A DNA stretch of 64,000 bases from Thermoplasmatales archaeon. GTDB lineage: Archaea; Thermoplasmatota; Thermoplasmata; Thermoplasmatales; Thermoplasmataceae. The notes beneath the pieces are model-generated. The model did not search any database. It saw only the letters and a program-made list of their open reading frames with translations, and was not told the DNA's origin. Both the position numbers and the translations under genes were made by a program. Location: contig JAJSLM010000006.1 in NCBI GenBank assembly GCA_026127925.1, positions 22,302 to 86,301 on the forward strand. The letters run 5' to 3'. This document shows positions 11,650-64,000 of this stretch, piece after piece (positions within the stretch are counted from its first letter, which is position 1; every line of letters starts with the position of its first letter).

Positions 11650-11675
11650 AAAAGTGTTAAAAATTAGGAAAGGTC

Positions 11676-24932: not shown

Positions 24933-26141
24933 TCATTTAGTTATCCCGAGTTTTTTTCCTATATCGGAAAATGATGAGATTGCATAATCAAGATCCTTTT
25001 TCGAATGCAGAGCCGAAGGCATCAACCTTATTCTAGCTGTTCCAGATGGGACGGTCGGGTACACAATCGGTGATGCAAAAACATTCTTTTCCCTAAAAAG
25101 CCGATCGCTTAATTCCAGGGTCTTTTTCTCGTCTCCAACCATGACAGGCGTAATCGGTGTTTTACTGTGTCCTGTGTTGAATCCGGCTTCGCTGAGGCCC
25201 TTCTTAAGGTAGTCGGAATTTTCCCAGAGCTTTCTGACCAGGGAATCGTCGCTCTCCAAGATCTCTATTGATTTTAGAACCGCAGCTGCATCACCAGCAT
25301 TAAGCGCGCTGCTGAAAAGGAATGGTCTGGACTTTCTCTTAAGGTATTCTATGAGGTCATTGCTGCCAGCAACGAATCCTCCCATTGATCCTATCGCCTT
25401 CGAAAAGGTACCCATTTCAATATCTATCTTGTCTGAAACCTTGAAATAGTCGCATATGCCTCTTCCATGATCGCCGAGAACTCCTTCCCCATGGGCATCA
25501 TCAACATAACTCATGGCACCATATTTTTCGGAATTTTCAATGATTTCTGGTAGCGGTGTTATGTCTCCGTCCATGCTAAAAACTCCGTCGGATATGACCA
25601 GCTTTTTTCCGGAATTTCCCGAAGCTTCCATTAATTTTTTTTCAAGATCATTCATATCAAGGTGCTTATACACAACTCTCTGTGCCGAACTTAACCTGAC
25701 ACCGTCGATTATACTCGCATGGTTGAGTTCTTCGCTGAAAACAACATCTTCTTTTCCAACAAGGACAGGTATCGTACCAGTGTTTGCGAGCAATCCACCC
25801 TGATATACAAGTGCAGATTCCATATGTTTGAACTTCGCAACCTTTTCTTCGAGCTTAACATGTATTTCTTCAGTGCCTGCTATAGATCTTACTGCGCCTG
25901 CGCCGACACCATATTCCTCGATCGCGTCAATGGCTGCCTTCTTAACTCTTGGATCATTAGCTAAGCCGAGATAATTGTTCGAGCACATGTTTAGCATGTC
26001 TTTTCCATCAATCTTAACCCAAGCTCCCTGAGAGCTCTGCAAGATCTTTATCGGTATGAATCTTCCTGAACTCTTCAGTTCCTCAATTTCCCTGCTTACC
26101 CAATCAAGTCCTTTGGAAACCATGGATAAGTATTTCGCCAT
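24933..26141 (-). CDS. PLP-dependent alpha-oxoamine synthase (2-amino-3-ketobutyrate CoA ligase / 8-amino-7-oxononanoate synthase family)
   Basis: GTFSKA PLP-lysine motif and class II aminotransferase fold pattern. Confidence 0.8.
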   Translation of the reverse strand: MAKYLSMVSKGLDWVSREIEELKSSGRFIPIKILQSSQGAWVKIDGKDMLNMCSNNYLGLANDPRVKKAAIDAIEEYGVGAGAVRSIAGTEEIHVKLEEKVAKFKHMESALVYQGGLLANTGTIPVLVGKEDVVFSEELNHASIIDGVRLSSAQRVVYKHLDMNDLEKKLMEASGNSGKKLVISDGVFSMDGDITPLPEIIENSEKYGAMSYVDDAHGEGVLGDHGRGICDYFKVSDKIDIEMGTFSKAIGSMGGFVAGSNDLIEYLKRKSRPFLFSSALNAGDAAAVLKSIEILESDDSLVRKLWENSDYLKKGLSEAGFNTGHSKTPITPVMVGDEKKTLELSDRLFREKNVFASPIVYPTVPSGTARIRLMPSALHSKKDLDYAISSFSDIGKKLGITK

Positions 26142-35857: not shown

Positions 35858-36214
35858 GTAAGCCACCATCGATCTAAACGATTGCGTTCAGATTCAGGAA
35901 ATACTGAAATTGTTACAAAGATTTAAACATGCCTATGGACGACGGTTGTTCATTTTAATTCGGTTAGAAGATTTCTATAGATATATTTTCTAATGGAATT
36001 TAAAAACAATTGATTTTCCGTTCCTCCCTATTTCGACGGAGGTCGAGCACCATGGAGCCTGTTAATGGTAGGGATATATTAAATCTAAGAATCGCGTATA
36101 AAATGTTCCTGAATTCGATAATGAATTGTTAGCGTGATTTTGCTGATGCAAAACAGGTCTATGATAGCTAATTAAGATAACTATTTATACAGATGATGTG
36201 TTATGTTACTAACT

Positions 36215-36811
36215 ATGAAAGCAAATGAGGTATTAAACCTGTTGCGTATTTCCAGAAAAACGCTTCATGTATATGCATCAACAGGCAAAATAAAATTTAC
36301 AGTTATGCCTAATGGCCATTATGATTACAATGATGAGGATGTTTATAAATTATTGAATAAAGATATTAAAAGAAAGACGATCATCTATGCAAGGGTATCA
36401 ACAACAAAGCAGAAGAATGATCTCGAGAACCAGATACAGCAGTTAAAACAATGGTGCTTTATGAATGGTTATACTATCAATGCGATATATTCAGATGTCG
36501 CGTCAGGAATATCGTTCAATAAGAGGAAAGGACTCTTTGAACTGCTCGATGAAATTATAAATTATAGAGTAGAAAAGGTAATAATAACATATAAAGATAG
36601 ATTAAGCAGAGTTGGCTTTGATTTATTTAAGCATCTTTTTGCTAAATTCGGTACAGAGATTGTTGTTATTTCCGATGTAGGTAGTATAAAATTAGATTCA
36701 GAAGAGATTTTTGAGGACATCATAAGTATGCTTCACTGCTATTCCATGAAGATGTATTCAAAGAGAAGAAAGAATTCAATTGAGGTTGGATATGAAGGTA
36801 ACGAGGACTGA
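36215..36811 (+). CDS. tnpA: IS607-type transposase TnpA (MerR-like HTH plus serine recombinase/resolvase domain)
   Basis: IYARVSTTKQ catalytic serine motif and resolvase core (DRLSR); N-terminal HTH. Confidence 0.85.
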   Translation: MKANEVLNLLRISRKTLHVYASTGKIKFTVMPNGHYDYNDEDVYKLLNKDIKRKTIIYARVSTTKQKNDLENQIQQLKQWCFMNGYTINAIYSDVASGISFNKRKGLFELLDEIINYRVEKVIITYKDRLSRVGFDLFKHLFAKFGTEIVVISDVGSIKLDSEEIFEDIISMLHCYSMKMYSKRRKNSIEVGYEGNED

Positions 36812-38036
36812 ACAGATCTTTATCCGAGACAATGGCACAGTATCTGAAATGTGCCATATATCGAAGAATCTCTATAATCAGGTCAATTACATTCTGAGAA
36901 ACCAGTTCTTCAATAAGGAGAAGATGTCTTCTTAGAAGGAACTTGCAAGACAATTCTCAAGGCCATCTGAGATAGAAGAAAACAACAACTTCCAGAAGCT
37001 CCCAGCACAGACAGCACAATGGACAATAAAGAAGGTAAAACAGTCATGGAATTCATTCTTCAAAGCCATGAGATCATGGAAGAAGCATCCGGAATTATTC
37101 AAGGGAGTTCCAAAACCACCAAGATACAAACATAAGGATGGAGAATTCATTCTCGTATTCACCAATCAGCAGTGTAGTATCCGCGATGGTATATTGAGAT
37201 TCCCAAAAATAATGAATCTGGAGGTTAAGACGAGACTAAAAGATGTGAATCTGAGAGAAGTGAGAATAATACCATTGGGGATCGGTTATAATATCGAGAT
37301 AGTGTATGTGAAAGAGATAACAGATACTTCTGAAATAAAGGCAGAGAGGATTATGGGTATTGATATCGGTGTGAGAAACCTCGCAACCATCGGTAACAAC
37401 ATTCCCGAACAGGGAATTGCTGTAAGGGCGGGATTGATCAAGTCAATAAATCAATACTTCAACAAAGAACTTGCAAGATACAGAAGCATAAACGATCTAC
37501 AGGGAAACGAAAGAAAGGACACAAAAAGGATACGAGAGCTCTTCATGAAACGGAACAACAAGATCAAAGACGTAATGCACAAGGTATCCAGATCAATAAT
37601 AGACTATGCAAAGTCGAAGAACATCGATACAATAGTCATAGGGCACAACGATGGATGGAAGCAATCGGTTAACATGGGAACGAAGAACAACCAGAATTTC
37701 GTTCAGCTCCCCTTCGATACATTGATCCATCAGATTAAGTACAAAGGGGAAGAGATCGGAATTAATGTAATTGTACAGAGAGAGGATCACACAAGCAGGT
37801 GTTCATTCCTTGACAATGAAACAATAGAACATCATGACACATACATGGGAAATAGAATAAGGAGAGGCACATTCAGATCGGCTAACGGAACTCTCATCCA
37901 TGCGGATCTCAATGCATCATACAACATAATAAAGAAGGCAATCCCTGAAGCTTTCGCGAACGGGATAGAGGATATCGGGTTATACCCAAGAAGTTTAAGC
38001 ATCAGACAGATGATAACTTCCAAAGGTGGATGTTAA
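36792..38036 (+). pseudogene. tnpB: TnpB (OrfB, RuvC-like RNA-guided nuclease family) interrupted by an in-frame TAG at 36933-36935; a 322-aa ORF resumes at the internal ATG 37068
   Basis: Manual translation from ATG 36792 gives MKVTRTEQIF...ILRNQFFNKEKMSS*KELARQFS...KLPAQTAQWTIKKVKQSWNSFFKAMRSWKK, continuous with the 322-aa ORF in one frame. RuvC-I GIDIGVRN and RuvC-III HADLNASYNI motifs are present. Confidence 0.75.
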
Positions 38037-38859: not shown

Positions 38860-39654
38860 TTATGCTGGTTCTTCCGAGAAAAATTTCTCTCTCAGGGTTT
38901 TACCGACCTGAAGAGAATTGTTAATGGCTGTTTTGACCTCATCCATCGTGAGATAACCTACCTCGCCTTTCTGCATGGCCCTGATATGCCCATCTTCCGT
39001 TGTTGTCACAGTAATCCTTGTAGAACCCATCTGCTCTTCCTCTGTATCGGGATCACATACCAGGACATCACCTATTTTTGACATGGTAACCGATATCGGA
39101 ATATGCTTCAGAACAAGCTTTGTATCTTTCCCACCCTCTTTCGAACCAGGAATAACAGCATTCCTCAGGGCGGATACAGCTGCAAGTGTGCACGCATCGA
39201 TGAGGTTCCCGTCAAAGTCCAGCACATCAATATCAACAAATACGATCCACACTTTTTCTCCGGGAGTTATGACGAGGCTATCCATGTCTATCATTTTACT
39301 CTCTCTGATTCCACGATCTACGACACGGGCAAGTTCAATTGTACCCTCACCTGGAGGTCCAGATTCAAACGTTGGGAACGCCATAGGAAGTAACTCTACA
39401 TTCGTAGTCAAAACACCACTGTCCGGGGTGTCGGGAAAAGGCTCTCCAGATTCTATTTTGACACCGGCGACAACTTTTGTCTTTCCGAGTTCAACTCTGG
39501 CAGAACCAGAAGCCCTTGGTACGTAACCAGGAAAGATCTTTATTTCCCTGAAATCAAGAGGTGATCTCCCATCTCCTCTCTTTCCCTCTTTCAATCTATT
39601 GATTATGTAACTTTTCTTGATCTCAGATAATACCCCTGCTTCATCTTTCGGCAT
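38860..39654 (-). CDS. rrp42: Exosome complex component Rrp42 (inactive RNase PH-like)
   Basis: RNase PH fold pattern, ~264 aa, directly downstream of rrp41. Confidence 0.8.
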   Translation of the reverse strand: MPKDEAGVLSEIKKSYIINRLKEGKRGDGRSPLDFREIKIFPGYVPRASGSARVELGKTKVVAGVKIESGEPFPDTPDSGVLTTNVELLPMAFPTFESGPPGEGTIELARVVDRGIRESKMIDMDSLVITPGEKVWIVFVDIDVLDFDGNLIDACTLAAVSALRNAVIPGSKEGGKDTKLVLKHIPISVTMSKIGDVLVCDPDTEEEQMGSTRITVTTTEDGHIRAMQKGEVGYLTMDEVKTAINNSLQVGKTLREKFFSEEPA

Positions 39655-40400
39655 TATTCACCACCTTCCTCAAGTGCTATATCTCTGTATTTCCCTGCAA
39701 GGGCTTCCCTCTGGATCTCGCTGATCCTTTTTATGGCATCGTCTATCATTTCGGTTGCCTTGTTGAATTCTTCAATCGTCAAGTCTCCATCCATCTGCAT
39801 CAGCACTATCTTCCCGGATTTCACCAGCTGCGCTATCGGGAGATCCGCTTCACCGAAGTTATCCTCCTCCTTGCCAAGATCCAGTACTATCTGTCCTGCC
39901 ACCTTCCCGGCTGTACATCCCGCGACCATATCCCTCATAGGAATGCCAGCGGCAGCCAGGGCTACGGCCGATGCTGTAAGGCCTGCTATCCTTGTCCCTG
40001 CATCTGCCTGGAGAACCTCGATAAAAACATCGATCTGGGTTCTCGGGAACTGCTCAGCAAGAATTGCAGTCTGCAGAGCTTCAGATACAACCTTTGAGAT
40101 CTCTATTGATCTCCTGTCAGGTCCAGGCCTCTTTCTTTCGTCGACTGAGAAAGCTGCCATGTTGTATCTCGCTTTAACTACTGCCATATCCATGTTCTGC
40201 GTGTGCTTAGGATATGCTTCCCTTGGTCCATACACGGAGGCAATAATCTTGTTGCCTCCCCATTCAATCATCGCTGATCCATCAGCATTTTCTAATACGT
40301 CCGTCTGTATCTTTATAGGTCTAAGTTCGCTGGGAGACCGGCCATCTAACCTGAGGCCGTTCTCGTCTATTAACTTTAGATCTGTTTTTGCTCCACCCAT
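39654..40400 (-). CDS. rrp41: Exosome complex exonuclease Rrp41 (RNase PH-like)
   Basis: LRLDGRSPSELRP N-terminus and RNase PH motifs, 248 aa. Confidence 0.85.
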   Translation of the reverse strand: MGGAKTDLKLIDENGLRLDGRSPSELRPIKIQTDVLENADGSAMIEWGGNKIIASVYGPREAYPKHTQNMDMAVVKARYNMAAFSVDERKRPGPDRRSIEISKVVSEALQTAILAEQFPRTQIDVFIEVLQADAGTRIAGLTASAVALAAAGIPMRDMVAGCTAGKVAGQIVLDLGKEEDNFGEADLPIAQLVKSGKIVLMQMDGDLTIEEFNKATEMIDDAIKRISEIQREALAGKYRDIALEEGGE

Positions 40401-41090
40401 CTAATTTCCTCCTTTCAATCCTTTCAAAAAATTCCCAACTCTATCTGTCAATCCATTTGTGTGCGCTTCCCTTTCAACCATCCTAATTGCAGAAACTGCA
40501 TTCATTATGTTCTCAGGACTTCCGTCTATCCAAATTAGGCCGTTTTGTCCAAGTACGATTCTTGTTGATGTCGCATCTTTTATCATGTTGACCATATTTC
40601 CACCCTTTCCTATGATCCTCGGGACCTTTGGGGAAGGAACGGATATAATGTGTCCACCTTCTAATTTCCTCAAGCCGACATCTCTCAGAGTGATCCAGCT
40701 CTCCTTAAGCTCGTTAACTGTCATAACTTTTGCATACACGTAGTCCCCCATGGAAAGGTATTTCTTCAGTTCGCCACTGTTTATGCGCCATGGGCTGTCA
40801 TTTGAATGCAGCATCGTAAGGTATGCTGAATTGATATCTATCGTCCACATGGAAGGTCCGATGTCTATGACTTTTCCAATAACCTTGTCGCCCCTTCTTG
40901 GCACATATCTTCCATAAAATGGAACTACGTCTACGAAACCATTTCCCGTTTGGACTACACCAAAATATGAGGAACAGAAATTATTCTCACTGCATTTATA
41001 GATCCCGTTTCTTGGTCTGTCCTGAGTTATCTCAATTACGTCTCCGGGAACCACTATTCTTTTTGTGTCCATTGTTTGTTCACCTGTCAA
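40401..41090 (-). CDS. rrp4: Exosome complex RNA-binding subunit Rrp4 (S1 + KH)
   Basis: S1 domain then KH motif IGKGGNMVNMIK. Confidence 0.85.
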   Translation of the reverse strand: MTGEQTMDTKRIVVPGDVIEITQDRPRNGIYKCSENNFCSSYFGVVQTGNGFVDVVPFYGRYVPRRGDKVIGKVIDIGPSMWTIDINSAYLTMLHSNDSPWRINSGELKKYLSMGDYVYAKVMTVNELKESWITLRDVGLRKLEGGHIISVPSPKVPRIIGKGGNMVNMIKDATSTRIVLGQNGLIWIDGSPENIMNAVSAIRMVEREAHTNGLTDRVGNFLKGLKGGN

Positions 41091-41344
41091 GTATCAAGCC
41101 AATTGCGCACTCAGAATCCAATGCATCCATAACGGACAGGACACAACTCCCGCCTTAAATATGTCTGGATGGAGTGATCAACTGGATATTTTTTACTCTC
41201 TTTTCGGTCTTATATGATACCTGACTATTTATTATTTATTTAACTCCATCTGATGTTCTTGAAAAGAGGTGACTTGGAGTCGAAGTATCGGCCTATGAAT
41301 CTAATTCGGACACGGTAGAAGCTGTTGAATCCAAACACAGGCAC

Positions 41345-42091
41345 TTACGGAATCACGCGGCTGTCCTTGAAATCTTTGATAAATCCCTCAGAGGTATTTT
41401 TCGAATCCGACGTAGGATTTCTGTTTATAAGAATGGCATTCATTCCAGATTCCCTGGCAGCCCTGATCTCCTTCTCAGAGTCAGATATGAAGATCAAATT
41501 TTTCTTATTTTTTCCTATTTTTTTAGCAATTCTGCTATAACTCTCAGGGTCTGTTTTCTTCCCAACGGACATATCGAAAAATCCATCTATGTACATCGCC
41601 AGGTCTCCGTACACAGTTGTGCTGAAAAGAAGTCTTTGCGACAGGGCGCTTCCTGATGAATATATGTATATCCCTATGCTTCCACCCCTCCATTTTTTAA
41701 ATGCCTCAGGTACGTCATCGTATACCTCGCCTCTTATGGATCCATTTCTGTACCCTTCTTCCCAGATGAATCCCTCTATCTCTTTCAATGGAGCTGTCTT
41801 ACTGTCCTTTTCCACCAGGTATCTTATTGCAGACGATACACGATTGAGAAAATTTTCTGTAGCATACTTATCTGCTGGAACAAATTCTAAAGGTAGATCT
41901 GGGAGTATTCTAAGTCTTTCAATACAACCAGCAATCTCAGGCCTACGGTAATTACTGTGCAAAAACGTTGCGACGTTTTCCTTGACGTAATCAAAAAGTG
42001 TGGAGTGAACAAATTCAATTGGGGTAGTAGTTCCTTCAATGTCCAGTATCACAGAGTTAATGCCAATATCCACCAGACCCATTAAGATCAT
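41345..42091 (-). CDS. mtnC: Enolase-phosphatase E1 (HAD hydrolase of methionine salvage)
   Basis: VILDIEGTTTPIEFV signature; likely start ATG at 42091 forms an ATGA overlap with the mtnD stop. Confidence 0.7.
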   Translation of the reverse strand: MILMGLVDIGINSVILDIEGTTTPIEFVHSTLFDYVKENVATFLHSNYRRPEIAGCIERLRILPDLPLEFVPADKYATENFLNRVSSAIRYLVEKDSKTAPLKEIEGFIWEEGYRNGSIRGEVYDDVPEAFKKWRGGSIGIYIYSSGSALSQRLLFSTTVYGDLAMYIDGFFDMSVGKKTDPESYSRIAKKIGKNKKNLIFISDSEKEIRAARESGMNAILINRNPTSDSKNTSEGFIKDFKDSRVIP

Positions 42092-42705
42092 CTTCGCTTT
42101 GTTGTAGGTATATACGAAGGCCCAAAACATACGGGCTCATATGATTGCTCCTTTCCACTTCCCGTGTAATAAGGAGTCCAGCCAGCTGGGTCCTGAAACA
42201 GCCTTATAGCCTTGATCCTTTTTTCGTTGCATAGATCAAACCAGTGTCTCGTTCCCCTGGGTATGCGGATAAGATCGCCTGTCTCAACCTCTACTGAAAC
42301 AACTTCATCCGTTTCAGTATGGATATAGAATATACCTCTGCCCTCTATTGCGTACCTCACTTCGTCTTCGCTGTGCGTATGTTCCTTCCTGAACTTTTGA
42401 AGCATAGAATCAAGATCAGGGGTATCTGGTTTCATATCAATTACGTCTGCCGTTGTGTAGCCACCTATTCTCTTGAGTCTCCGCACATCTTCATCGTATG
42501 CTTCAAGAATCTTTTCTGGATCGGTTTCATCACTGCTTAATTTGCCAGTATCCCACCTTTCGTAATGTATCCCTATATTTTCCAGAAAAACTTTTGCCTC
42601 TCCACTGCTTTCAATCTTTATACCTTTGTCAGGAACGCTTATAACTACCATTGAATCATCACCTTTTTCTCTTAAATTACATTCCGGAATTAACAAGCCT
42701 TCCAT
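42088..42705 (-). CDS. mtnD: Acireductone dioxygenase (cupin)
   Basis: HTHSEDEVRYAIEGRGIFYIH...IRIPRGTRHWF cupin metal-site pattern of the ARD family. Confidence 0.7.
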   Translation of the reverse strand: MEGLLIPECNLREKGDDSMVVISVPDKGIKIESSGEAKVFLENIGIHYERWDTGKLSSDETDPEKILEAYDEDVRRLKRIGGYTTADVIDMKPDTPDLDSMLQKFRKEHTHSEDEVRYAIEGRGIFYIHTETDEVVSVEVETGDLIRIPRGTRHWFDLCNEKRIKAIRLFQDPAGWTPYYTGSGKEQSYEPVCFGPSYIPTTKRR

Positions 42706-42766
42706 GGACCTCCAACAGGAACTCTAAGACTTCAGTATGCCTCTTTGCAGCCTCAACATTATTCCC

Positions 42767-43342
42767 TCATACATACAGGCCATGGCCGGAAAGAAGGAAA
42801 CAATGTAGGTTTTTATCATTTTTGAGTAAATCGTTGACCTTAGCGGAAAGGGAGAGCATGTCCTGCGAATTTTCTAAAACCGGGATCCATTCGGAATGAT
42901 CGTGAGATACTACGTTTTCAAGTCCTTTGAGCATTTCATATCCCTCCATCTGAAATCCCCCATCCTTGAGGTATTTCTTTGAGAGAATTGTTCCCCAAAT
43001 AGAGTGAGTGTGGAACACGGCGCTACAGTTCCTCTGTTTGATCGCAGCAACATGAAGCAATGTTTCACTTGATGGTTTTCTCTCCCCGGAGAGGATTCTT
43101 CCAAGATCATCAACGTAAACTATGTCTCGCAAGTTCAACATGCTTTTGTCAAGGCCGCTTCCCGTAATGGAAAGAACAAATGGAGATCTCGAGATCAGTG
43201 CACTCAGATTCCCGCTTGTGCCAAAAAGCCATCCTCTTCTGTAGAATTCGTACGCAATTTTTATTAGATCGAGTGAGACGTTAAGATTTGCTTCCCGAAT
43301 CCCCTGGTTTCCTACATTTACTTCCTGCAATTTATTTGTCAC
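42767..43342 (-). CDS. mtnB: Methylthioribulose-1-phosphate dehydratase / class II aldolase-adducin family
   Basis: SGNLS, HTHS and GHG motifs of class II aldolase/MtnB. Confidence 0.65.
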   Translation of the reverse strand: MTNKLQEVNVGNQGIREANLNVSLDLIKIAYEFYRRGWLFGTSGNLSALISRSPFVLSITGSGLDKSMLNLRDIVYVDDLGRILSGERKPSSETLLHVAAIKQRNCSAVFHTHSIWGTILSKKYLKDGGFQMEGYEMLKGLENVVSHDHSEWIPVLENSQDMLSLSAKVNDLLKNDKNLHCFLLSGHGLYV

Positions 43343-43591
43343 TCTAAGGTCCGATTAAGTCATGCTGTTTTAATTTTTTGTGCTAATTTATTACCATTGG
43401 TAATTTACATGATCCAAGCTAGTGTAATATAATTGCCCTATCGTAATATTAGAAACGGGCCGATCCAATGAAGATATTAAGGAGTGAAAAGACTTGGGTT
43501 GACTTGATGGTTATAAGCAGTAGAGGACTATTTGCTTAATTCTAATCCAAATGTTTCTGTAGGAGAATCTTTAGTTGATTTTGATATAAAT

Positions 43592-44284
43592 CTATGGCTT
43601 AAATTCTTGATGCTGAAATAAGTAGATGTAAGAAATGACCATTATTATTGCTAGGAAAGAGGCAGTGGCAAGGCCAAGAGAAGGATCCACGTTAATAATC
43701 CCCTTCTTATAATATTCGAAGCTAGTTAACGGGGTTAAGAAATAAAGTATCATCCCCATGGGCAATCCCGAGGTTATGCCAAGGCTTACATAATTTTCAA
43801 TCAATTCTACTGCAGCAATAGGGATCAAAAGAATAAACACTATACTGATCATAAATGCATTCAACTGAGAAGGCGATAGAGAGGATAAAATGGAAATCGA
43901 CGCATATACCAAAAGAGAAATTAAAATTGGGATAACGAGAAACGTGTTTTTTGTGATCAATAATATGGATACCTCTGTTACTATGAATGGTAAAAGGCCC
44001 AGTGCAAATACTATAAGTTTTGAAATTGCTATTCGTTTCCAACTTCCAAGGAAGGAAAGTTCGAAAACGGTCATAAGTTTATTACGAGTAAAGTGTGATC
44101 CGACAATTAAAATAATAAATGGAATCAGCAACATCTGAGTCAGCAATGAAAATTCCACAAGGCTCTTCAGATATTCAATAGTGTATAATTGTGTAAGAAT
44201 GATCATAGACAATATAGGAACATATATTGGCAGAGGGAATACCCCTTTTAGATACCACTTAACGGTCATTGTCAAATTGGCCAT
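43592..44284 (-). CDS. ABC-2-type transporter permease
   Basis: Six hydrophobic helices; overlaps the ATPase gene by 26 nt. Confidence 0.5.
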   Translation of the reverse strand: MANLTMTVKWYLKGVFPLPIYVPILSMIILTQLYTIEYLKSLVEFSLLTQMLLIPFIILIVGSHFTRNKLMTVFELSFLGSWKRIAISKLIVFALGLLPFIVTEVSILLITKNTFLVIPILISLLVYASISILSSLSPSQLNAFMISIVFILLIPIAAVELIENYVSLGITSGLPMGMILYFLTPLTSFEYYKKGIINVDPSLGLATASFLAIIMVISYIYLFQHQEFKP

Positions 44285-45095
44285 ATATTCTGCGCACTCC
44301 GGATTTTCTGAAACCTATTATTACGCCACTCTCTAACAGCTTCGCAAGTTTTTTTATGTCCGATTTAACAAGACAAATATCACCATACCTGAACAAGCAT
44401 TCCATTTTAATCTGTGCGCTTCTGGTCATGTACACTTCAAAAATGTCTGATGAAAATAGGTCACTTATTGTTCCGTTCCAGACTGCTCGTCCATTGTTAA
44501 GAATCACTATGTAGTCGGCTAGAGTTTCGGCTTCTTCAGGGACATGAGTTGAAAAAATCAAATCTCTATTCATACGGTACATGTCGTTCATTACATTTCC
44601 TGTCCTAGAAATGTCAATGTGAGTGAACGCTTCATCAGCTATTATTCTTGAAGTATTCCGTGAGAAGGCACTTAATAGAGTCATGAGTTGCTCTTGACCT
44701 GACGAGAGCTTAAATAGCCTTTCGTCATAAAATTCTTCAAGATCTAATTGTTTAAGCATGGGCTCAAAATCAGGCCCCAAATCAGGGGAACGGCGAGCAA
44801 AGTTAATAAATTCTTTTACTTTCATCCTGTAGGATAGTTTAGGCTTTTCAAAGAGAAATGTTGAACTTTTAAGTGCTTCGGCTCTGTTTTTATACGGTTC
44901 GATTCCGTTGATCTCCAGAGAACCTGTTGAGGGAGTCAAGATACCTGCTATTATAGAAAGAACTGTTGTTTTGCCACTTCCATTTTGTCCTAAAAAACAT
45001 AATCGGTTTGTTTCTACCTCAAGATTTAAAGTATCCAAGGCTTTTTTTTGCTCGCCAAACTTCTTTGTCAAGTTTTTGGCCTTTAATAAGAACAT
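44259..45095 (-). CDS. ABC transporter ATP-binding protein
   Basis: Walker A GQNGSGKTT, signature LSSGQEQ, Walker B IIADEA. Confidence 0.85.
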   Translation of the reverse strand: MFLLKAKNLTKKFGEQKKALDTLNLEVETNRLCFLGQNGSGKTTVLSIIAGILTPSTGSLEINGIEPYKNRAEALKSSTFLFEKPKLSYRMKVKEFINFARRSPDLGPDFEPMLKQLDLEEFYDERLFKLSSGQEQLMTLLSAFSRNTSRIIADEAFTHIDISRTGNVMNDMYRMNRDLIFSTHVPEEAETLADYIVILNNGRAVWNGTISDLFSSDIFEVYMTRSAQIKMECLFRYGDICLVKSDIKKLAKLLESGVIIGFRKSGVRRIYGQFDNDR

Positions 45096-45100
45096 TGAAT

Positions 45101-45925
45101 TCAGTTCGCCTTCCTATAGACGTATACAGCCAGAATTGCAGAAGAAAGCAATAATATTATGTTCAAAGGGAACGCAAAGCCAAAACCATAATATATCCAC
45201 CCAAACCAGTCTTGGGCGGGAACACCGTTTCCTGTACCAAGGTTCATAATCGTTAGGCCAGCTACATGTATAGCGCTCATGTTGAAAGTGAAGCTTGGAA
45301 ATATATATGTGAGTAAGTTTATCGTGTTATTTGATGCTTGGGTTAGAAACGCGGACATTGCGAGTTGAGAACCGAAGTGTACGTAACTAACCTCTATGTT
45401 TGTAAAATTAGGTTCGTTAAAATAATAATCTGGAAATCCAAGGTAGCCACTTGGGTTCATGTTTTCAGCGGAATGTGATATAGTAAAATTTAATATGCGA
45501 TCACTGACCGTGTTTCCGTTCGGAAACAGCATATTAATAAGACTGTATTCGCTTCTTGTAAAGTTTCCAGAATAGTTGGAAATCTCTACAACAGATGAAC
45601 CATAAAATGGTGGAGCAGGAAGCAATTTAGCATTAAATCCCGTGCCTGTTGGTGAAGGATACACTTTATAGAGTTTCGAGTCAACGTGGTAATATTCAGT
45701 TTTCATTTTCGTTATATTTACTGTTACCCCTAAATCGTACATTGTATAGTTCTTTTTCACAACCGTACCAAAAATACCGTAGTACTCCAGTGAGATCCCC
45801 GAAGAAAAACTATCCTTGTATTCTTTATGTATGTATGTACCAAAAGTATATGTTGATGCAGGGATGAAATTAACAGCGACTCCTATGATCACAAGTGCGA
45901 GTATAACTACTGTCAACTTTTTCAT
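45101..45925 (-). CDS. Hypothetical secreted/membrane-anchored protein
   Basis: N-terminal signal/TM and C-terminal TM helix; N/T/Y-rich. Confidence 0.4.
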   Translation of the reverse strand: MKKLTVVILALVIIGVAVNFIPASTYTFGTYIHKEYKDSFSSGISLEYYGIFGTVVKKNYTMYDLGVTVNITKMKTEYYHVDSKLYKVYPSPTGTGFNAKLLPAPPFYGSSVVEISNYSGNFTRSEYSLINMLFPNGNTVSDRILNFTISHSAENMNPSGYLGFPDYYFNEPNFTNIEVSYVHFGSQLAMSAFLTQASNNTINLLTYIFPSFTFNMSAIHVAGLTIMNLGTGNGVPAQDWFGWIYYGFGFAFPLNIILLLSSAILAVYVYRKAN

Positions 45926-45966
45926 TCATATCCACCAAATGAGAAAAATAATATATATTATTATAT

Positions 45967-46500
45967 CTATGCGTCAAAAGTTACGTCAAAATCAATTGGT
46001 ATGCCACCAACACCTGATTGATAGTAGCCGGTGCCGTAAATGTACACGTAATTCACGTACTGTCCATTACCCACATATTCCATTTGATTTACCAAAGTAC
46101 CTGTCAAATGTTGGCCAACGGCACTGTTTAAACTGTAGTCGACACTACTAGAAAGATCCGTTGAGCTTTCATGACTAGATGTACCCGTGATAGATCCACC
46201 GTCAGGCCAAACTCCACCGCTATTTGTAACTAATTTTGTATTCGTGTTCAGCTGAAAATCTCCATTGTTATAGGTAGCAAAATACTGCCAGTTATTGTTA
46301 ACCCATGCCATGTGGATTCCGAATATGTCTGTGGCATAAACCTGGCTGTACGCATGGTTGCCATAAGAGTCTGCGTGGGTCACACCTGAAATCACCAATA
46401 TAAGCAAAAGCCCAAACAATACTGAAAGTGTTGTTACGAGCAAATGCCACTTCTTTTTACTCTTTTGTGTTTTCATTATGTTGCTCACCAAATGGTTCAT
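45967..46500 (-). CDS. Hypothetical secreted protein
   Basis: K-rich N-terminus then TM/signal, G/Y/N/T-rich body. Confidence 0.4.
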   Translation of the reverse strand: MNHLVSNIMKTQKSKKKWHLLVTTLSVLFGLLLILVISGVTHADSYGNHAYSQVYATDIFGIHMAWVNNNWQYFATYNNGDFQLNTNTKLVTNSGGVWPDGGSITGTSSHESSTDLSSSVDYSLNSAVGQHLTGTLVNQMEYVGNGQYVNYVYIYGTGYYQSGVGGIPIDFDVTFDA

Positions 46501-46985
46501 GTCATATATATATATAATTTTCGTTTAAACTACGCCAATTATAAACCGCTGTTTCAACTTTTGTTGCAGTTTGAGAAATAACCTAACATCAACTCGTTGC
46601 TGTATGGACTATCCAGAATGTAATCCTTATCGACGAGAATGACTATCATTTTCCTTTCCATGTCTTATCTCTCGAAGACGATATTTCAGTATCTATGATT
46701 GTTCACATTCTGGAAGCGTATGAGTGTTTCTCCGTTTTGTGAAATTACATTAACCGTCACAATATTGCTGCGCCCCCCTCCTTGTGGAATAGTATACTCA
46801 TATTGCTGTTTGTCCCATCCATAGTCACTTTATGGTTCTGTGAAAAGACACTGGTCCTCTCTTACAGAATCGACTGGTAACAAATTTCGCTGATAGGAAT
46901 ATACATTATGGATTTACATAAATTTCTCTTGATAAAAGATACTTCTATGAAAATTAACGTATTTATTAATCTAGGGTTGGAGTGG

Positions 46986-47684
46986 CTAACGCGGTTTTAC
47001 GATCCGTATTTCCACGTTCTCCCTGGACTTCCTTGAAAGCTGACTCATTATGTCTCCAACAATTCCAGCAGGTACCTCCAGAAGGCCCATCCATGAGCCA
47101 TCTTTACCCCATTCTTCCTTGATCAGATAACCCGTTCTCAGAATATCGCCATAAACCTTTCCATAGGCATCTCCCGTTAGTTTCACTGCAAGTTTCGTCT
47201 TATCCATTCTAATGGGCAGTATTGGCTTTATTGCCTTTAATATGGTCTGAAGTTGATCCCCTGCGCTCTTGAAAGGGTCGACATGAACTTTTGCCTCTTC
47301 CATAGCCTGTGCAATCCTTACCGCAGGGTGTGGTGTATTTGTCTGCGGGTTTATGGATTCACGTACGATTAGTTCTATAATCTGTTTCTTTCGGCGTTCA
47401 AGCAGTTCTCTTCTCTGGTCTGTAGTGAGTTCAATTTGTCCCTTTCTGACAATCTCGGTTGCAATTTCCTTGATGTCTGCGGTTTTAAAGACTTCTTTTA
47501 TCGCTTCTTCTCCTGCCTTTTCTCCTTTACGAGCGTCTTTGTAAACTTCGTCTATTGCGAGGTCCTGGTCCGCGTCTATCTTTCCTTCCTTGATGCGATC
47601 TGTAGCATCCGGATCGACGAATATCTCGAACTTATGACCGTGTGATTCCAGTCTAGCAATTATCGCATCTTCCAACCTGACCAT
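46986..47684 (-). CDS. sdo1: SBDS-family ribosome maturation protein (Sdo1)
   Basis: MVRLEDAIIARLESHGHKFEIFVDPD N-terminal FYSH domain; conserved superoperon position; the ORF-track start (47756) is likely an upstream artefact. Confidence 0.8.
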   Translation of the reverse strand: MVRLEDAIIARLESHGHKFEIFVDPDATDRIKEGKIDADQDLAIDEVYKDARKGEKAGEEAIKEVFKTADIKEIATEIVRKGQIELTTDQRRELLERRKKQIIELIVRESINPQTNTPHPAVRIAQAMEEAKVHVDPFKSAGDQLQTILKAIKPILPIRMDKTKLAVKLTGDAYGKVYGDILRTGYLIKEEWGKDGSWMGLLEVPAGIVGDIMSQLSRKSRENVEIRIVKPR

Positions 47685-48038: not shown

Positions 48039-48611
48039 ATGAAAGAACTTACACTTTACAGAATCCGGGAAATGGCGCTAGAATCGAAAAGGGCAGTTTA
48101 TACAACACCTCAGTTGTCTAATCTGATTGGCAAAGAATACACTACCGCGTCCGTTTATATGACAAGGCTCTGGAAAAGTGGTCTTGCTAAACATTTGGTA
48201 AGAGGAAAAATTTCTTTCATAGATAACGACTTTGTGAATGCATCTCAGCTAATTGAACCATCTTACATATCCTTATCCTCTGCCTTATTGTTTTACAATG
48301 CATCGCAGCAGGTTCCACGTAGGGTTCAGTCCGTAACTCCTGTCAATTCTATGACGTTCGAAGACCTTGGTTTAGAATATCATAAGATTCCTCCAGGACT
48401 TATGTTCGGTTACGAACGTCACTTAGTAGGGGGAAGTTACTGCTTTGTCGCAACTGTGGAAAAAGCTCTCCTTGATGGGTATTATCTCAACTATTTCTCA
48501 GCAGGGGATCTTGATTCGTATGTAGGGAGTAAAAGAATGAAAGAATTCAGACCTTATTTGGACAAATTTAAGGGCAAAGGAAAATTAAAGCTGCTCGAGG
48601 TGGTCAGATGA
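48039..48611 (+). CDS. AbiEi-family antitoxin / transcriptional regulator (type IV TA)
   Basis: SYISLSSALLFY motif typical of AbiEi; 4-nt overlap with the AbiEii gene. Confidence 0.55.
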   Translation: MKELTLYRIREMALESKRAVYTTPQLSNLIGKEYTTASVYMTRLWKSGLAKHLVRGKISFIDNDFVNASQLIEPSYISLSSALLFYNASQQVPRRVQSVTPVNSMTFEDLGLEYHKIPPGLMFGYERHLVGGSYCFVATVEKALLDGYYLNYFSAGDLDSYVGSKRMKEFRPYLDKFKGKGKLKLLEVVR

Positions 48612-49360
48612 TTGATTCAAAGAAGATAATGGAAATTTCCCAACTATCACACTTGAGGCCATGGCAGCAGGAAAAGCATTATCTGCAGAGTTTAATCCTC
48701 ACAACCATTTCGGACTATCCTCTCGTGTTTAAAGGGGGAACATATCTATGGTTTTTTCACGGGCTTAACAGATTTTCTGAGGATTTAGATTTCACCGCAA
48801 AAGGCCTATTCAAAAGAGAATTGCCTGAATTTGTTTCAAGATCCTTGAGACTATACGGTTATGAAAACAAGTTAAAGATCATAAATGAGAATAATTTCAA
48901 TGTATCAGCAAGATTCATGATCGATGGTCCCCTGCACACGAATGAAAAGGATAGATGCATAGTGTACGTTGAGATCAGCATGAGGGAAAAGGTCATTCTT
49001 CCAGGTATACCATTGAGTATAAATCTTCCCCAATATGATATTCCTGTTCGAACAATCACCGGAATGAACCTTGATGAAGTAGGAGCAGAAAAAGTCAGGG
49101 CAATTCTTACACGAAACAAGGACAGAGACGTATACGATTTATTTTATCTCATTCGTCTAAAGAACATTCTGTTCGATCAGGAATTAATCAACAGAAAGCT
49201 CGACTATTACAATAAAAAATTTGACCCTGCTGAATTTCTCAATAGATTAGGCCAAGCTCAAAAAACGTATAAAAAGGAATTAAGGCAAACAGTTCTGGGC
49301 GAGCTACCTGATTTTGATGTAGTCCGAGCCTATATAGAGAACTGGGTGAAAGGGGGATAA
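48608..49360 (+). CDS. AbiEii/AbiGii-family nucleotidyltransferase toxin (DUF1814)
   Basis: FKGGTYLWFFHGLNRFSEDLDFTA matches the GGTAL...RFSEDIDF signature. Confidence 0.75.
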   Translation: MIDSKKIMEISQLSHLRPWQQEKHYLQSLILTTISDYPLVFKGGTYLWFFHGLNRFSEDLDFTAKGLFKRELPEFVSRSLRLYGYENKLKIINENNFNVSARFMIDGPLHTNEKDRCIVYVEISMREKVILPGIPLSINLPQYDIPVRTITGMNLDEVGAEKVRAILTRNKDRDVYDLFYLIRLKNILFDQELINRKLDYYNKKFDPAEFLNRLGQAQKTYKKELRQTVLGELPDFDVVRAYIENWVKGG

Positions 49361-57928: not shown

Positions 57929-58258
57929 CAGACACCTTTAATGATTTAATTTTCCCCAGTTTAACGAGAGCTAATCACGTTTCATAGTTCTACTGACCCC
58001 TGGGGAATTTTTCGCCCACCGCTGATCGAGTGATCACTGCCTGGATTTCGGCCAGCTGCTGAACTCGAGGCCCATGGTTGGGCGAATTTTATTCCCATGT
58101 CGTCATATGTGATCATGAATCACACATACTATTTTATGGGACAAATACCAGAGCGTAATCGCATAATAATAATTTACCCCAGTCAATCAAGTATATCTAT
58201 TAACGATAACGAAGAAAAATTATAATGATAATAACTATGTCGTCTGGTTGAAAAGGGG

Positions 58259-58331
58259 CTTGTGGTCTAGCGGTTATGACATCGCTCTCACACAGCGAAG
58301 GTCGCCGGTTCAAATCCGGCCAAGCCCATTC
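58259..58331 (+). tRNA. tRNA-Val (anticodon CAC), no encoded CCA
   Basis: Manual fold: acceptor GGGCTTG/CAAGCCC plus discriminator A, anticodon stem TCGCT/AGCGA with loop CTCACAC, T-arm GCCGG-TTCAAAT-CCGGC. Confidence 0.85.
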
Positions 58332-58961: not shown

Positions 58962-59130
58962 TGACTGTTCAATATTCTTGAGACATATAAATCCTTCCTC
59001 TTAAAATAGGACCAAAATCTAATAGCCATTAACATAAGCGTTCTCGGATATATTCCTATCATTAAAAATAAGCAGACACATCGGTTGCGTCAATAACCAA
59101 TGAATAAATAGGTTCATAAGATTCATTTGC

Positions 59131-59652
59131 ATGGAAGCTTCAGAGAAAGTAGTAGAAAGTTATTTCAGATATGTGAAAGGATACTTCACAATTCCCAATC
59201 TAAGATGTAGGGGTCAAAAAGAAGTTGACCTAATAGGAATGAAGGAAAGTGATGGAAAAATTCAAAGAATTCATGTAGAAGTGAGCGTAACAACATCCGG
59301 TGAATTCAATAAAATAAACGCTAAGCCTTATTCTGAAGCTAAGAAAAAAACTAGAGGTGGATCTGCATCGGAGAGAGTTAAGATAGGTTACTTCACCGAT
59401 AGCAAATTTAACGATTCAAATGTGTTGTCGACGCTAAAAGGTTATGGATTTTCAAAAGATAATTACGAAAAGATAATTGTATCATGGGACTGGGAACCGG
59501 CAGTAGAACCCATTTCTAAAAAAAAGGAGATCAAGCTCCTAAGATTTAAGGATATACTGAAAGAGATGATGGATGTATTTGGAAAGAAGGAATCCTATTT
59601 CTCAGATGATACGGTCAGATTGCTGCAACTTCTAAAAAAAAGCAGGGTTTAA
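59131..59652 (+). CDS. Hypothetical protein, possible Hjc/PD-(D/E)xK-like nuclease fold
   Basis: KEVDLIGMKESDGKIQRIHVEVSV resembles the Hjc xDLIA...IEVK core, but the lysine is replaced by serine. Confidence 0.3.
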   Translation: MEASEKVVESYFRYVKGYFTIPNLRCRGQKEVDLIGMKESDGKIQRIHVEVSVTTSGEFNKINAKPYSEAKKKTRGGSASERVKIGYFTDSKFNDSNVLSTLKGYGFSKDNYEKIIVSWDWEPAVEPISKKKEIKLLRFKDILKEMMDVFGKKESYFSDDTVRLLQLLKKSRV

Positions 59653-59724
59653 TTGAAAGACCTTTGTGAAATTTAGCTTCTTCTTATATGATATGAGCAG
59701 GATTAATATTACTTCAAAAGAAGG

Positions 59725-59886
59725 TCACTCAATCTTCCTAACCACAATCTCCCCTTTAATTTCATAAAATCCTATATGTTCCGATTCTGAAACATTCAAC
59801 TTCTCTGCTATCTCTTTTGGTAAAGTGATCCTCAATGATGAGCCCCTGGAAGATGTCTTCGATACTGCGATTAGTTTATCTGACAT
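59725..59886 (-). CDS. Small AbrB/MazE/SpoVT-type (swapped-hairpin) DNA-binding protein, 53 aa; not in the ORF track
   Basis: Manual translation: MSDKLIAVSKTSSRGSSLRITLPKEIAEKLNVSESEHIGFYEIKGEIVVRKIE; the RGSSLRITLPKEIAEKL pattern is typical of AbrB-like antitoxins/regulators. Confidence 0.5.
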   Translation of the reverse strand: MSDKLIAVSKTSSRGSSLRITLPKEIAEKLNVSESEHIGFYEIKGEIVVRKIE

Positions 59887-60144
59887 TGGGAGGGTAATAA
59901 ATTAAACTTTTCATTAAAATTTTTCCAGTAAAAAGTAGTTTCTACACTTACCTATTTAGAGATGGATGAAGAGGTTCCATTTTCTTAGGTTCCTCTATTT
60001 CCAAGATTGTCTTAAGGAAAGACCAATTTAGTTCAAAAATAGGCGCGGCAGACCATGAACATAGAAATTATCATGAAGGTTGACGCTTTATTGACAAAAT
60101 TTATGTTCAGATACCGGACATGTTCATGGAAGGTTACCTTAATC

Positions 60145-60693
60145 TTACACAGAATTATGGAAACTACGATCATTCTTGAATGAATTTATCCAGTTATCGT
60201 AAATGTTCTTATTTATTTGCTTAGGGGAGTCAACTGATCGGCAAACATAGTATTCGGATTCTTTGTGTTTTCCGATGTAAAACTGTTTTTTGTTCATATT
60301 GTATTGCTCGACTTCTTCTCTACGGAATAAGAAGATCTTGGTGTCTATCGATATTCTTGAATTTTCTCCTTTTTCTCCTTTGGGGATGAAAGGGAAGTAC
60401 ACAGTAAGAACAAGGAAATCTAGGTGTTGATCGATTTTGACAGGTTTGCTAAACCAGCCATGAAATTCTACTTTGTATTTCTTTTGATCTGATGGGGATG
60501 TATCATAAGACCTTGAACTTTTTATCTGAAAGGTTACACTTTTTCTGGTTTCTATATTGAGTAATGCTACATCAAAGTACTTCTGTTGCCTGCTGGTCGG
60601 AATAACCACAGAATACTTATCTTTGTCGAAGCTCTTTGAGAGAGTATCAGCAAATTCAAACTCAGAATACTCTAAAGTAAAAAATGGCTTCAA
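60145..60693 (-). CDS. Hypothetical protein downstream of the methyltransferase (candidate nuclease/accessory subunit)
   Basis: ORF only; weak D...E.K-like FDVALLNIETRK stretch. Confidence 0.3.
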   Translation of the reverse strand: MKPFFTLEYSEFEFADTLSKSFDKDKYSVVIPTSRQQKYFDVALLNIETRKSVTFQIKSSRSYDTSPSDQKKYKVEFHGWFSKPVKIDQHLDFLVLTVYFPFIPKGEKGENSRISIDTKIFLFRREEVEQYNMNKKQFYIGKHKESEYYVCRSVDSPKQINKNIYDNWINSFKNDRSFHNSV

Positions 60694-61028
60694 GAGAATG
60701 TTCTCCCGTATTCTAACATATCAACAGTCATAATGTTTAGCAATTTAACTCTTCTCATACCCTTATCTTACGTTGACCTGAGTAAGAAAGTAGGCTTATC
60801 TTTCCATATAACTGGCTTTCATTGGCAAAATGACATTGGTGCCCTAATGGACCATTTTACTCTTTTATTTATTACAAACACATACTGATAGGACATTAAC
60901 CATAATTATGTGTAGGACTAACGATACCTCTATTTTCTTCCAATATCAAGAATATCGTTGAGTTTCCTACATTCTCTAATGGCATTTTTACAGTTTCTAT
61001 TCTTTTTACGATACGATTCTTAAAGGCA

Positions 61029-61931
61029 TCAAGTGGATATGTTCTCTCCGTTTAAATTCTTACTAAATAAAAATTCTCTATCTAAATCTGCATTTCGAGG
61101 AGTCCACAAATTATTGAGATTTTCAGTGAAATAATAATCCCTGCGGTATTTATCTATGCTATCGCTTGGTCTTAATTCCCTTAATCTTTCTTCTATCTTT
61201 TTAGTATTTACTGGGTCGATTTCAATTCCAATATACTTTCTCGATAGCTGTTTCGCTACCACTAGAGTCGTACCCGTCCCTGCAAACGGATCAAAAACCA
61301 AATCTCCAATATTGCTGGAAGATAATATTATCCTCAGCAGAAGAGCTACAGGAGATTGTTGTTTGTGAAATCTTTCACCATTTTCCATCCTTAGTGCTTC
61401 ATCACCAGCAAAATATCCTGATGTTAGTTCCCTAATATCATCCCATACGTCAGTAACATACATACCATTTGGTCTCTCATACCTTTCCGTAATTAATCTT
61501 GGTGGATTTATCCTAAGTTTATTAAAAACTCTTGGTTTATCGCCCTTTGTAGCAAATACAATTATTTGATAATGCAATCCAAATTTGTTATTCTGTGGAA
61601 CAGCAGACGTTTTCTTTTTCCATATAATTAAGTTCTGGTAAGTCCAGCCGGTATCTTCAAGAACCTTCATTACTCGAGCTGTATTCTTCTCTCTTTGCAT
61701 AAAATATATTGAACCACCATCAGAAGTCCTATTATATATCAATCTGCAAACCCTTTTCATGAATATCCAATATTCCTCTTCCGGGATATCATCATCGCTA
61801 ACTCTGTAATCTTTTCCTTGATTGAAAGGGGGGTCTAAAAAAGATAGATCTATTTGAAGGTCTTTTTTTGGAGTTTTCGATAGAAACTTTACGCAATCGT
61901 CATTAATTATCATGTTTTCCTTCATTATCAT
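61029..61931 (-). CDS. Beta-class DNA methyltransferase (N6-adenine or N4-cytosine)
   Basis: Motif IV DPPF near the N-terminus and motif I LVFDPFAGTGTT near the C-terminus (the IV-then-I order defines the beta class). Confidence 0.85.
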   Translation of the reverse strand: MIMKENMIINDDCVKFLSKTPKKDLQIDLSFLDPPFNQGKDYRVSDDDIPEEEYWIFMKRVCRLIYNRTSDGGSIYFMQREKNTARVMKVLEDTGWTYQNLIIWKKKTSAVPQNNKFGLHYQIIVFATKGDKPRVFNKLRINPPRLITERYERPNGMYVTDVWDDIRELTSGYFAGDEALRMENGERFHKQQSPVALLLRIILSSSNIGDLVFDPFAGTGTTLVVAKQLSRKYIGIEIDPVNTKKIEERLRELRPSDSIDKYRRDYYFTENLNNLWTPRNADLDREFLFSKNLNGENIST

Positions 61932-63418: not shown

Positions 63419-63475
63419 TGTTATCCCTTTATCTATTGTTTTTACAATTAATTGTAGTTAAACTCGATGATACGG

Positions 63476-63799
63476 TTACCTAGTACAAGATTTCTTAATA
63501 TAGTATGTTTCAGACCTATTTACTGTCTCAACATAACGAGTTTCTATTTTACTATCAGAAACCATACTATCTAAAAGCTTACCAAAAGAGAATCCTGTCA
63601 TTAACGCGTCAAACATTTTCCAACCTATAGTATCTCTAGGCTTTGTAAAAGACAAATTTGCGTTCAGTGCCATTTGTATTTCTGTCTGAGTCCGAGCTTT
63701 GCAATCACCAAGTAATTTTTCAATAGCGCCCTTTAAAGTGGTTTCAGTATATCCTTTCTTAAATTCGTCAGAACTTATTGCCATGAATAGCCATAACAT
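63476..63799 (-). CDS. Hypothetical protein
   Basis: ORF 57 nt upstream of the PLD-nuclease gene on the same strand. Confidence 0.3.
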   Translation of the reverse strand: MLWLFMAISSDEFKKGYTETTLKGAIEKLLGDCKARTQTEIQMALNANLSFTKPRDTIGWKMFDALMTGFSFGKLLDSMVSDSKIETRYVETVNRSETYYIKKSCTR

Positions 63800-64000
63800 T
63801 ATTAAATAAAATGCTTACTTACGATGCTTAATACAATTTATTTCCCTTTGAGGTTGTCTCCAAAAATTATATCAGCACCAGAAAAATCTTTCACCAATCT
63901 TGGTCATCATCCTCATCATCAGAGCCTAGATGGTCGATTATCCATGCTAACCCCTTCGCAATATCCTTATTCTTCTGCCATTGAAGTTTTTCCTTTTCCA

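Follow-up and report, generated by a model that had tools for sequence, protein, structure and literature searches.

A stretch of 64,000 nucleotides (nt) from a Thermoplasmatales archaeon (contig JAJSLM010000006.1; the window hereafter, in whose coordinates all positions are given) carries a genuine mtnB-mtnD-mtnC methionine-salvage cassette, ordinary and already annotated, whose first gene is interrupted by an in-frame TGA at an invariant tryptophan codon. This stop was overlooked in an earlier note on the same DNA, made from the letters alone, and the complete back end of the 5'-methylthioadenosine (MTA) cycle that the note described does not stand: mtnB as found is probably a gene fragment or pseudogene, and the dehydratase step is the point at which the back end of methionine salvage is most likely interrupted in this genome. 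We are fairly confident in an overall explanation that combines a methionine-salvage cassette, an old bacterial acquisition and a nonsense mutation in mtnB.

Three consecutive and tightly spaced open reading frames (ORFs) occupy 41345-43342 on the minus strand, where the earlier note had placed them (Table 1), and the profile searches for which it had called confirm the identities that it had assigned, with MtnB and MtnC above equivalog cut-offs and MtnD above the cut-off of its Pfam family. Despite its truncation to 191 amino acids (aa), MtnB matched the TIGR03328 equivalog with 150.1 bits (cut-off 137.05; E=5e-44), whereas the aldolase/epimerase models (FucA, AraD and related) did not exceed 53 bits, far from their cut-offs of 250 or more; among solved structures, the closest are 2irp (Aquifex aq_1979) and 4m6r (human APIP/MtnB). 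MtnD passed the threshold of the Pfam acireductone dioxygenase (ARD) family PF03079 across the whole domain (114.1 bits, cut-off 27; E=9e-33) and matched 1zrr (Klebsiella ARD) with E=1.6e-32 and 4qgl with E=1.8e-30; an NCBIfam equivalog search of MtnD for ARD returned no match. MtnC scored 198.1 bits on the TIGR01691 enolase-phosphatase model (cut-off 128.1; E=1e-58) and E=5e-40 against human E1 (1yns). GenBank already names the products of the trio (MCW6170819-21), MtnD merely as a "cupin domain-containing protein", and the orthologues in Oxyplasma and other metagenome-assembled genomes (MAGs) likewise carry names in databases.

The catalytic residues are also in place. MtnB retains E93, H111, H113 and H187, which we take to be the zinc ligands from knowledge of the FucA and APIP structures and which are invariant in our alignments A1 and A6. 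The MtnD ligands H91, H93, E97 and H136 (EHTHSEDE...RHWF) align with H96/H98/E102/H140 of 1zrr and are invariant in alignment A4. MtnC has the motifs of the HAD family, namely DIEGTTTPI (D17-x-E19), SSGS (S145-S148), GKK (motif III Lys, K179) and SD (D204), and D17, E19, S145-S148, K179 and D204 are invariant in alignment A5. The FDT motif of MtnC carries a window-specific T174M change (41570-41572), where 98% of 116 homologues and the related locus L010 have Thr; this change may represent a second, milder lesion of the pathway. With regard to gene boundaries, mtnD probably starts at the ATG at 42651, preceded by a GGTGA Shine-Dalgarno-like site at 42663-42659, which yields a protein of 187 aa. 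Its TGA (42090-42088) overlaps the in-frame ATG of mtnC (42091-42089) in an ATGA at 42091-42088, an arrangement that the earlier note had read correctly; the NCBI start of MtnC lies 9 nt further downstream and gives 245 aa.

The TGA in mtnB falls exactly on the Trp codon of the GHGLY(T/V)WG motif. Upon read-through, the translation is ...SGHGLYV*GNNVEAAKRHTEVLEFLLEVHGRLVNSGM*, and the frame reaches a TAA at 42679-42677; the 29 codons after the stop can be aligned residue for residue to 2irp, 4m6r and all archaeal homologues. All 118 homologues have Trp192, which is invariant also in a 46-sequence alignment, and its codon is TGG in the DNA of the two closest relatives (L001 and L002). In a protein cluster built at 90% identity (18 members, 15 listed), the 14 other proteins listed are 221 aa long and contain the Trp, and the 191-aa GenBank protein MCW6170821.1 is the only short allele among the members listed; the nearest full-length MtnB alleles in the collections are approximately 90% identical, and none is closer.

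The structural consequence was assessed on the AlphaFold model of P0001, a protein 90% identical to the window MtnB (pLDDT 91.5), for which the best-matching solved structures are the MtnB orthologues 2irp and 4m6r. In this model, residues 188-193 form the last beta-strand and residues 196-219 a long helix (pLDDT ~98), and the segment that is truncated away in the window (residues 192-221) bears the invariant R201, E204, E207 and F208. The frame of the window mtnB thus does not extend through the GHGLYxWG strand and the C-terminal helix of a full-length MtnB, and the stop is predicted to remove an integral structural element of the enzyme. It is because this helix is so confidently predicted that we regard the back end as probably blocked at its first step.

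Substitution patterns add a further perspective. Within the genus, the pairwise ratio of nonsynonymous to synonymous divergence (dN/dS) of the trio is 0.05-0.20, indicating that these genes are under purifying selection across the genus. When private amino-acid changes in MtnB, MtnD and MtnC were counted together with L005 as the outgroup, the window branch had 42 and the L010 branch 21 (chi-square, calculated by hand, 7.0), an excess that is compatible with relaxed constraint on the window branch. MtnC T174M is among the 42. Residues conserved in at least 90% of Mtn proteins are otherwise essentially all kept in the window. The inactivation, if real, would be very recent, because mtnD, mtnC and the 29 post-stop codons are undamaged.

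Besides its position between SBDS and rrp4, the cassette was found on clearly archaeal contigs in four other neighbourhoods: it adjoins a complex-I-like cluster in Oxyplasma meridianum (L008), RadA/XPB genes in a Thermoplasmatota lineage (L014), CDC48 in the B_DKE-type cluster (L015), and thermopsin, S3Ae and NMD3 in the L016 lineage. It is also present in FK3.bin88 (L011). The archaeal distribution was surveyed within Thermoplasmatota, where the route recurs in Thermoplasmatales and beyond (O. meridianum, the B_DKE cluster and several MAG lineages) and is named in GenBank, so that the description "uncommon in archaea" in the earlier note needs to be tempered. The nearest named non-archaeal homologues belong to Acidobacteriota (Pyrinomonadaceae) and share the B-D-C order. 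A phylogeny, for which the earlier note had also called, was run as a rough neighbour-joining tree of 124 MtnB sequences, in which taxonomy was supplied by 11 labelled proteins and three labelled loci, most metagenomic homologues being without a taxon name; the labelled archaea form one clade and the labelled Acidobacteriota lie in the other. These data fit an old en-bloc acquisition from bacteria, after which the cassette would have been inherited vertically and relocated within Thermoplasmatota, and we infer the direction from bacteria to archaea because the bacterial distribution is much wider. Of the lateral acquisition suggested earlier, an ultimately bacterial origin is therefore plausible, given that the trio forms a self-contained three-gene cassette in each archaeal relative, in differing neighbourhoods, and that Acidobacteriota have the same gene order, whereas a recent event private to this genome is contradicted by congeneric synteny and by base composition.

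We propose the following explanation. The cassette would constitute the canonical O2-dependent back end of methionine salvage as a single compact operon, mtnB-mtnD-mtnC. In this pathway, MtnB dehydrates 5-methylthioribulose-1-phosphate to 2,3-diketo-5-methylthiopentyl-1-phosphate, the enolase-phosphatase E1 MtnC converts the latter into acireductone, Fe-MtnD with O2 yields 2-keto-4-methylthiobutyrate (KMTB) and formate, and a transaminase turns KMTB into methionine. The cassette would have come from bacteria in a single ancient en-bloc transfer and been inherited thereafter within the acidophilic Thermoplasmatales/Thermoplasmatota; in this genus, it would have settled in the exosome operon, flanked by SBDS and rrp4 and equipped with a promoter-like element of its own. 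A G-to-A change would then have made the Trp192 codon TGA, with loss of the C-terminal helix, and gene loss would still be in its early phase, with mtnD and mtnC intact.

Several points weigh against this explanation. The mtnD and mtnC genes are without disabling lesions and the mtnB codons after the stop are undamaged, and the relative-rate excess is modest and derives from a three-taxon parsimony count. Although a Logan assembly of SRR15116022 supports the stop, being 100% identical over 12.4 kb of the window, TGA included, the two assemblies may come from the same reads. A consensus error or a minority variant could thus account for the stop, and low-level tRNA-Trp read-through of UGA could preserve some MtnB. 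As for the origin, the MtnB tree was built from distances and carries few taxon labels, and the direction of transfer is taken from distribution only. Lastly, MtnP, MtnA and MtnK are absent among the ORFs of the 64-kb window, and a KMTB transaminase was not found there.

The strongest competing view is that the pathway is fully functional, the TGA being a sequencing or consensus error, a minority allele, or a codon read through by near-cognate tRNA-Trp. The 29 downstream codons stay in frame and retain every conserved residue, mtnD and mtnC are intact with their catalytic residues, the stop sits precisely at a Trp codon that is a single transition away from TGG, and one genome only, among the cluster members listed, carries it. 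We nevertheless judge this view unlikely, though worth keeping in mind: the two assemblies are identical base for base, roughly twice as many amino-acid changes fall on the window branch in all three Mtn proteins, and a search for a recoding signal or a known RNA element found none. Furthermore, TGA serves as a genuine stop more often than any other stop codon in the window and ends mtnD 680 nt downstream, and no other window gene has homology on either side of an in-frame TGA. A genetic-code reassignment of TGA to Trp is ruled out: TGA ends 31 of the 68 long ORFs of the window, including mtnD, and mtnB is the only window gene split by an in-frame TGA. That UGA codon 192, under an otherwise standard code, is decoded as Trp often enough to sustain methionine salvage seems improbable to us; if true, it would be a natural site-specific UGA-to-Trp suppression in a Thermoplasmatales archaeon, possibly one that throttles an O2-dependent pathway.

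A further reading, in line with the lateral acquisition suggested in the earlier note, is a recent lateral insertion of the trio from bacteria into the exosome superoperon of this genome. The canonical SBDS-rrp4 adjacency is indeed broken by the trio, insertions of a mobile type lie close by (the 43410-46987 block, an AbiE pair and an IS607-like element), and the nearest named non-archaeal relatives are Acidobacteriota. However, six loci (L002, L004-L007 and L010) hold the trio at the same position with 78-89% nucleotide identity to the window, and its G+C content (GC) of 0.41-0.42 equals the window average and that of its surroundings. The closest homologues of all three genes are archaeal (57/57-59/45% identity to the window MtnB/MtnD/MtnC, versus 47-48/49/40% for Pyrinomonadaceae), and the labelled archaeal MtnB sequences form one clade. 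We therefore consider a recent insertion very improbable and favor the old acquisition. The truly recent insertion is the 43410-46987 block rather than the trio.

Least probable of all is the possibility that the genes serve another sugar phosphate, such as 5-deoxyribulose-1-phosphate from radical-SAM 5'-deoxyadenosine in a DrdA/Ald2-like dihydroxyacetone phosphate (DHAP) shunt: class II aldolase-fold enzymes of 5-deoxyribose pathways (6btd/6btg) occur among the structural neighbours of MtnB and no mtnP, mtnA or mtnK stands beside the cassette in archaeal loci, but the MtnB equivalog cut-off is passed with all aldolase/epimerase models below 55 bits (cut-offs 250 or more), MtnB orthologues are the top structural matches, and mtnB strictly co-occurs with ARD and enolase-phosphatase E1, neither of which takes part in the DHAP shunt. 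We reject a DHAP-shunt class II aldolase in view of the profile scores and the accompanying genes.

Concerning the steps on either side of the methionine-salvage back end, the statement in the earlier note that mtnP and mtnA lie outside the window agrees with the ORF content, and mtnA, mtnP and mtnK are not adjacent to the cassette in any archaeal relative locus that we looked at. The only class I/II aminotransferase-fold ORF of the window (24933-26141; 402 aa, "aminotransferase class I/II") was considered as the KMTB transaminase and rejected, as it is a Kbl/BioF acyltransferase (TIGR01825, 553 bits). Generic transaminases elsewhere in the genome could fill this step.

Table 1. Features of the mtnB-mtnD-mtnC locus and its surroundings in the window.
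Feature	Position	Strand	Basis or remark
mtnB ORF	42767-43342	minus	191 aa, GTG start
mtnD ORF (longest ORF)	42088-42705	minus	205 aa
mtnC ORF (longest ORF)	41345-42130	minus	261 aa
mtnB codons 1-191, methylthioribulose-1-phosphate dehydratase, class II aldolase fold	42770..43342	minus	TIGR03328; PF00596
mtnD, acireductone dioxygenase (ARD cupin), 187 aa	42088..42651	minus	PF03079; GenBank MCW6170820.1 = 187 aa
mtnC, enolase-phosphatase E1 / acireductone synthase (HAD family), 248 aa	41345..42091	minus	TIGR01691
In-frame TGA replacing the Trp192 codon of mtnB (TGG in relatives), nonsense mutation	42767..42769	minus	homologue and DNA comparison
mtnB 3' remnant, 29 in-frame codons GNNVEAAKRHTEVLEFLLEVHGRLVNSGM + TAA	42677..42766	minus	homology to C-terminal helix
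Conserved A/T-rich element TAATAAATTAGCACAAAAAATTAAAACAGCATGACTTAAT, 40 nt	43354..43393	minus	ends 11 nt before the mtnB GTG
SBDS	46986..47684	minus	Pfam SBDS_N/SBDS_domain_II/SBDS_C on L003; 97-99% aa identity to L010, L005
rrp4, first exosome gene, downstream neighbour of mtnC	40401..41090	minus	Pfam on L003; synteny L004-L007, L010
rrp41	39654-40400		after rrp4
rrp42	38860-39654		after rrp41
ABC-transporter ATPase	44259-45095		within 3.6-kb block
Membrane/secreted protein	43592-44284		within 3.6-kb block; no Pfam match
Membrane/secreted protein	45101-45925		within 3.6-kb block; no Pfam match
Membrane/secreted protein	45967-46500		within 3.6-kb block; no Pfam match

The gene order in the window is NurA-HerA-Mre11-Rad50, psmA, SBDS, the trio and rrp4-rrp41-rrp42. 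Because the exosome genes normally share an operon with SBDS (PMC2890523), the trio interrupts the exosome array; the earlier note was right in locating it inside the superoperon, where it splits SBDS-rrp4-rrp41-rrp42. In L002 and L004-L007, the order is psmA, a 65-aa ORF, SBDS, mtnB, mtnD, mtnC and rrp4, and the arrangement in L010 (Thermoplasmata archaeon YS3.bin24) is the same except for two opposite-strand genes between SBDS and mtnB. SBDS is the upstream neighbour of mtnB in relatives, whereas in the window the two are separated by a 3.6-kb insertion (43410-46987) of lower GC (0.36-0.38) that fills the gap between SBDS and the putative mtnB promoter; this block is private to the window and absent from L002 and L004-L007. 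A search for target-site duplications or terminal repeats flanking it returned only short, low-identity chance repeats. The gap between SBDS and mtnB is an insertion hot spot, because L010 has two different opposite-strand genes there. At the other end of the cassette, L004, which represents one population of the sister lineage, has an insertion sequence (11359-12374; DDE_3 transposase and helix-turn-helix genes) between mtnC and rrp4 that is absent from L005 and L006, which adds to the evidence for insertion-prone cassette borders.

The cassette and its flanks also differ in their relationships. In psmA, SBDS, rrp4 and rrp41, the smallest divergence is that between L010 and L005 (synonymous divergence, dS, 0.12-0.21), with the window as the outlier (dS 0.31-0.76). 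In mtnB, mtnD and mtnC, by contrast, the window pairs most closely with L010 (dS 0.33-0.69), and L005 is distant (dS 0.9-1.6; 81/79/70% aa identity). It seems that the cassette has been swapped by recombination among congeneric lineages, independently of flanks that are 95-99% identical.

Immediately upstream of mtnB lies an A/T-rich element (Table 1) that is nearly identical in the window, L010, L005 and L001, whereas the coding DNA is 78-89% identical and the sequence further upstream is unalignable across the four lineages. The element contains CATGACTTAAT between a TATA-like run and the start codon. We regard it as a likely candidate for a promoter, with a B recognition element (BRE) and a TATA box, or for an operator, and the mtnBDC mRNA would then be leaderless or have a very short leader. 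An Rfam search of 41000-43700 for a riboswitch or other known RNA gave nothing at E<=1.

Other insertions and islands of the window lie outside the cassette. Between psmA and SBDS, where relatives have only the 65-aa ORF and no such pair, an AbiEii-family toxin (48608-49360) is encoded together with an upstream 190-aa partner without a Pfam match (48039-49360 for the pair). An IS607-like element (36203-38036), composed of a serine-recombinase gene (Resolvase; 36203-36811) and a TnpB/OrfB_IS605-Cas12f-like gene (37068-38036), splits a phosphoribosyltransferase gene from the L37ae/Pus10 part of the superoperon, and the Logan contig ends at its edge. In 59000-64000, the GC falls to 0.34-0.35; an N6/N4 DNA methylase gene (61029-61931) overlaps a PLD-like nuclease-family gene (61928-63418), several ORFs are without Pfam matches, and a tRNA-Val (58256-58328) lies nearby. 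This region may represent an integrated restriction-modification or defence island.

Among known systems, the closest bacterial counterparts are the mtnB-mtnD-mtnC operons of Pyrinomonadaceae/Blastocatellia in Acidobacteriota (L012 and L013), which have the same three families, order and tight spacing, MtnB and MtnD with 47-55% aa identity to the window, and likewise a bifunctional E1-type MtnC. The window differs from them in its archaeal host, the putative archaeal-type A/T-rich promoter element, the GTG start, the SBDS-rrp4 location and the stop-interrupted mtnB. Pseudomonas aeruginosa has the same gene order (PA1683-PA1685). Within the archaea, the cassettes of O. meridianum (CP133772), the B_DKE cluster, YS3.bin24 and FK3.bin88 are orthologous, with 45-91% aa identity and identical order; the other archaeal cassettes examined encode an intact MtnB of 215-267 aa with the Trp. 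Placement in the exosome operon was found only in the genus of the window, whereas the cassettes of other Thermoplasmatota occupy the four different neighbourhoods described above.

The same folds and catalytic residues are found in human APIP (4m6r), ADI1 and ENOPH1 (1yns), in Klebsiella oxytoca ARD (1zrr) and E1, and in Aquifex aq_1979 (2irp); these enzymes match the window proteins with E values of 1e-12 to 1e-40 and a TM-score of ~0.8, at an identity of merely 26-35%. To our knowledge, no archaeal member has been experimentally characterized. The Bacillus variant, with the RuBisCO-like enolase MtnW and the phosphatase MtnX, and the anaerobic/DHAP-shunt routes serve the same purpose of recycling the methylthio group of MTA; the window differs from the former in having a single E1-type enolase-phosphatase (TIGR01691) instead of MtnW/MtnX and from the latter in the presence of the O2-dependent ARD step. 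Judged by its gene content, the system is of the aerobic E1 type, as in Klebsiella, Pseudomonas and eukaryotes. Our literature search on mtn genes in Thermoplasmatales or archaea found no relevant paper, and a review of methionine salvage mentions archaea solely for MTA phosphorylase; a search for papers citing SRR15116022 gave none.

Neither the nonsense codon nor the placement in the exosome operon overturns current understanding. The main value of these findings lies in a clean annotation and in the recurrence of an O2-dependent MtnB/C/D route in acidophilic Thermoplasmatales. Of possible specialist interest is what may be an incipient pathway loss, in which a single nonsense codon strikes an invariant Trp in an otherwise pristine operon. 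Moreover, a cassette in the middle of the exosome operon whose history is unlike that of its flanks points to recombination-driven allele exchange and to an insertion hot spot within a conserved gene array.

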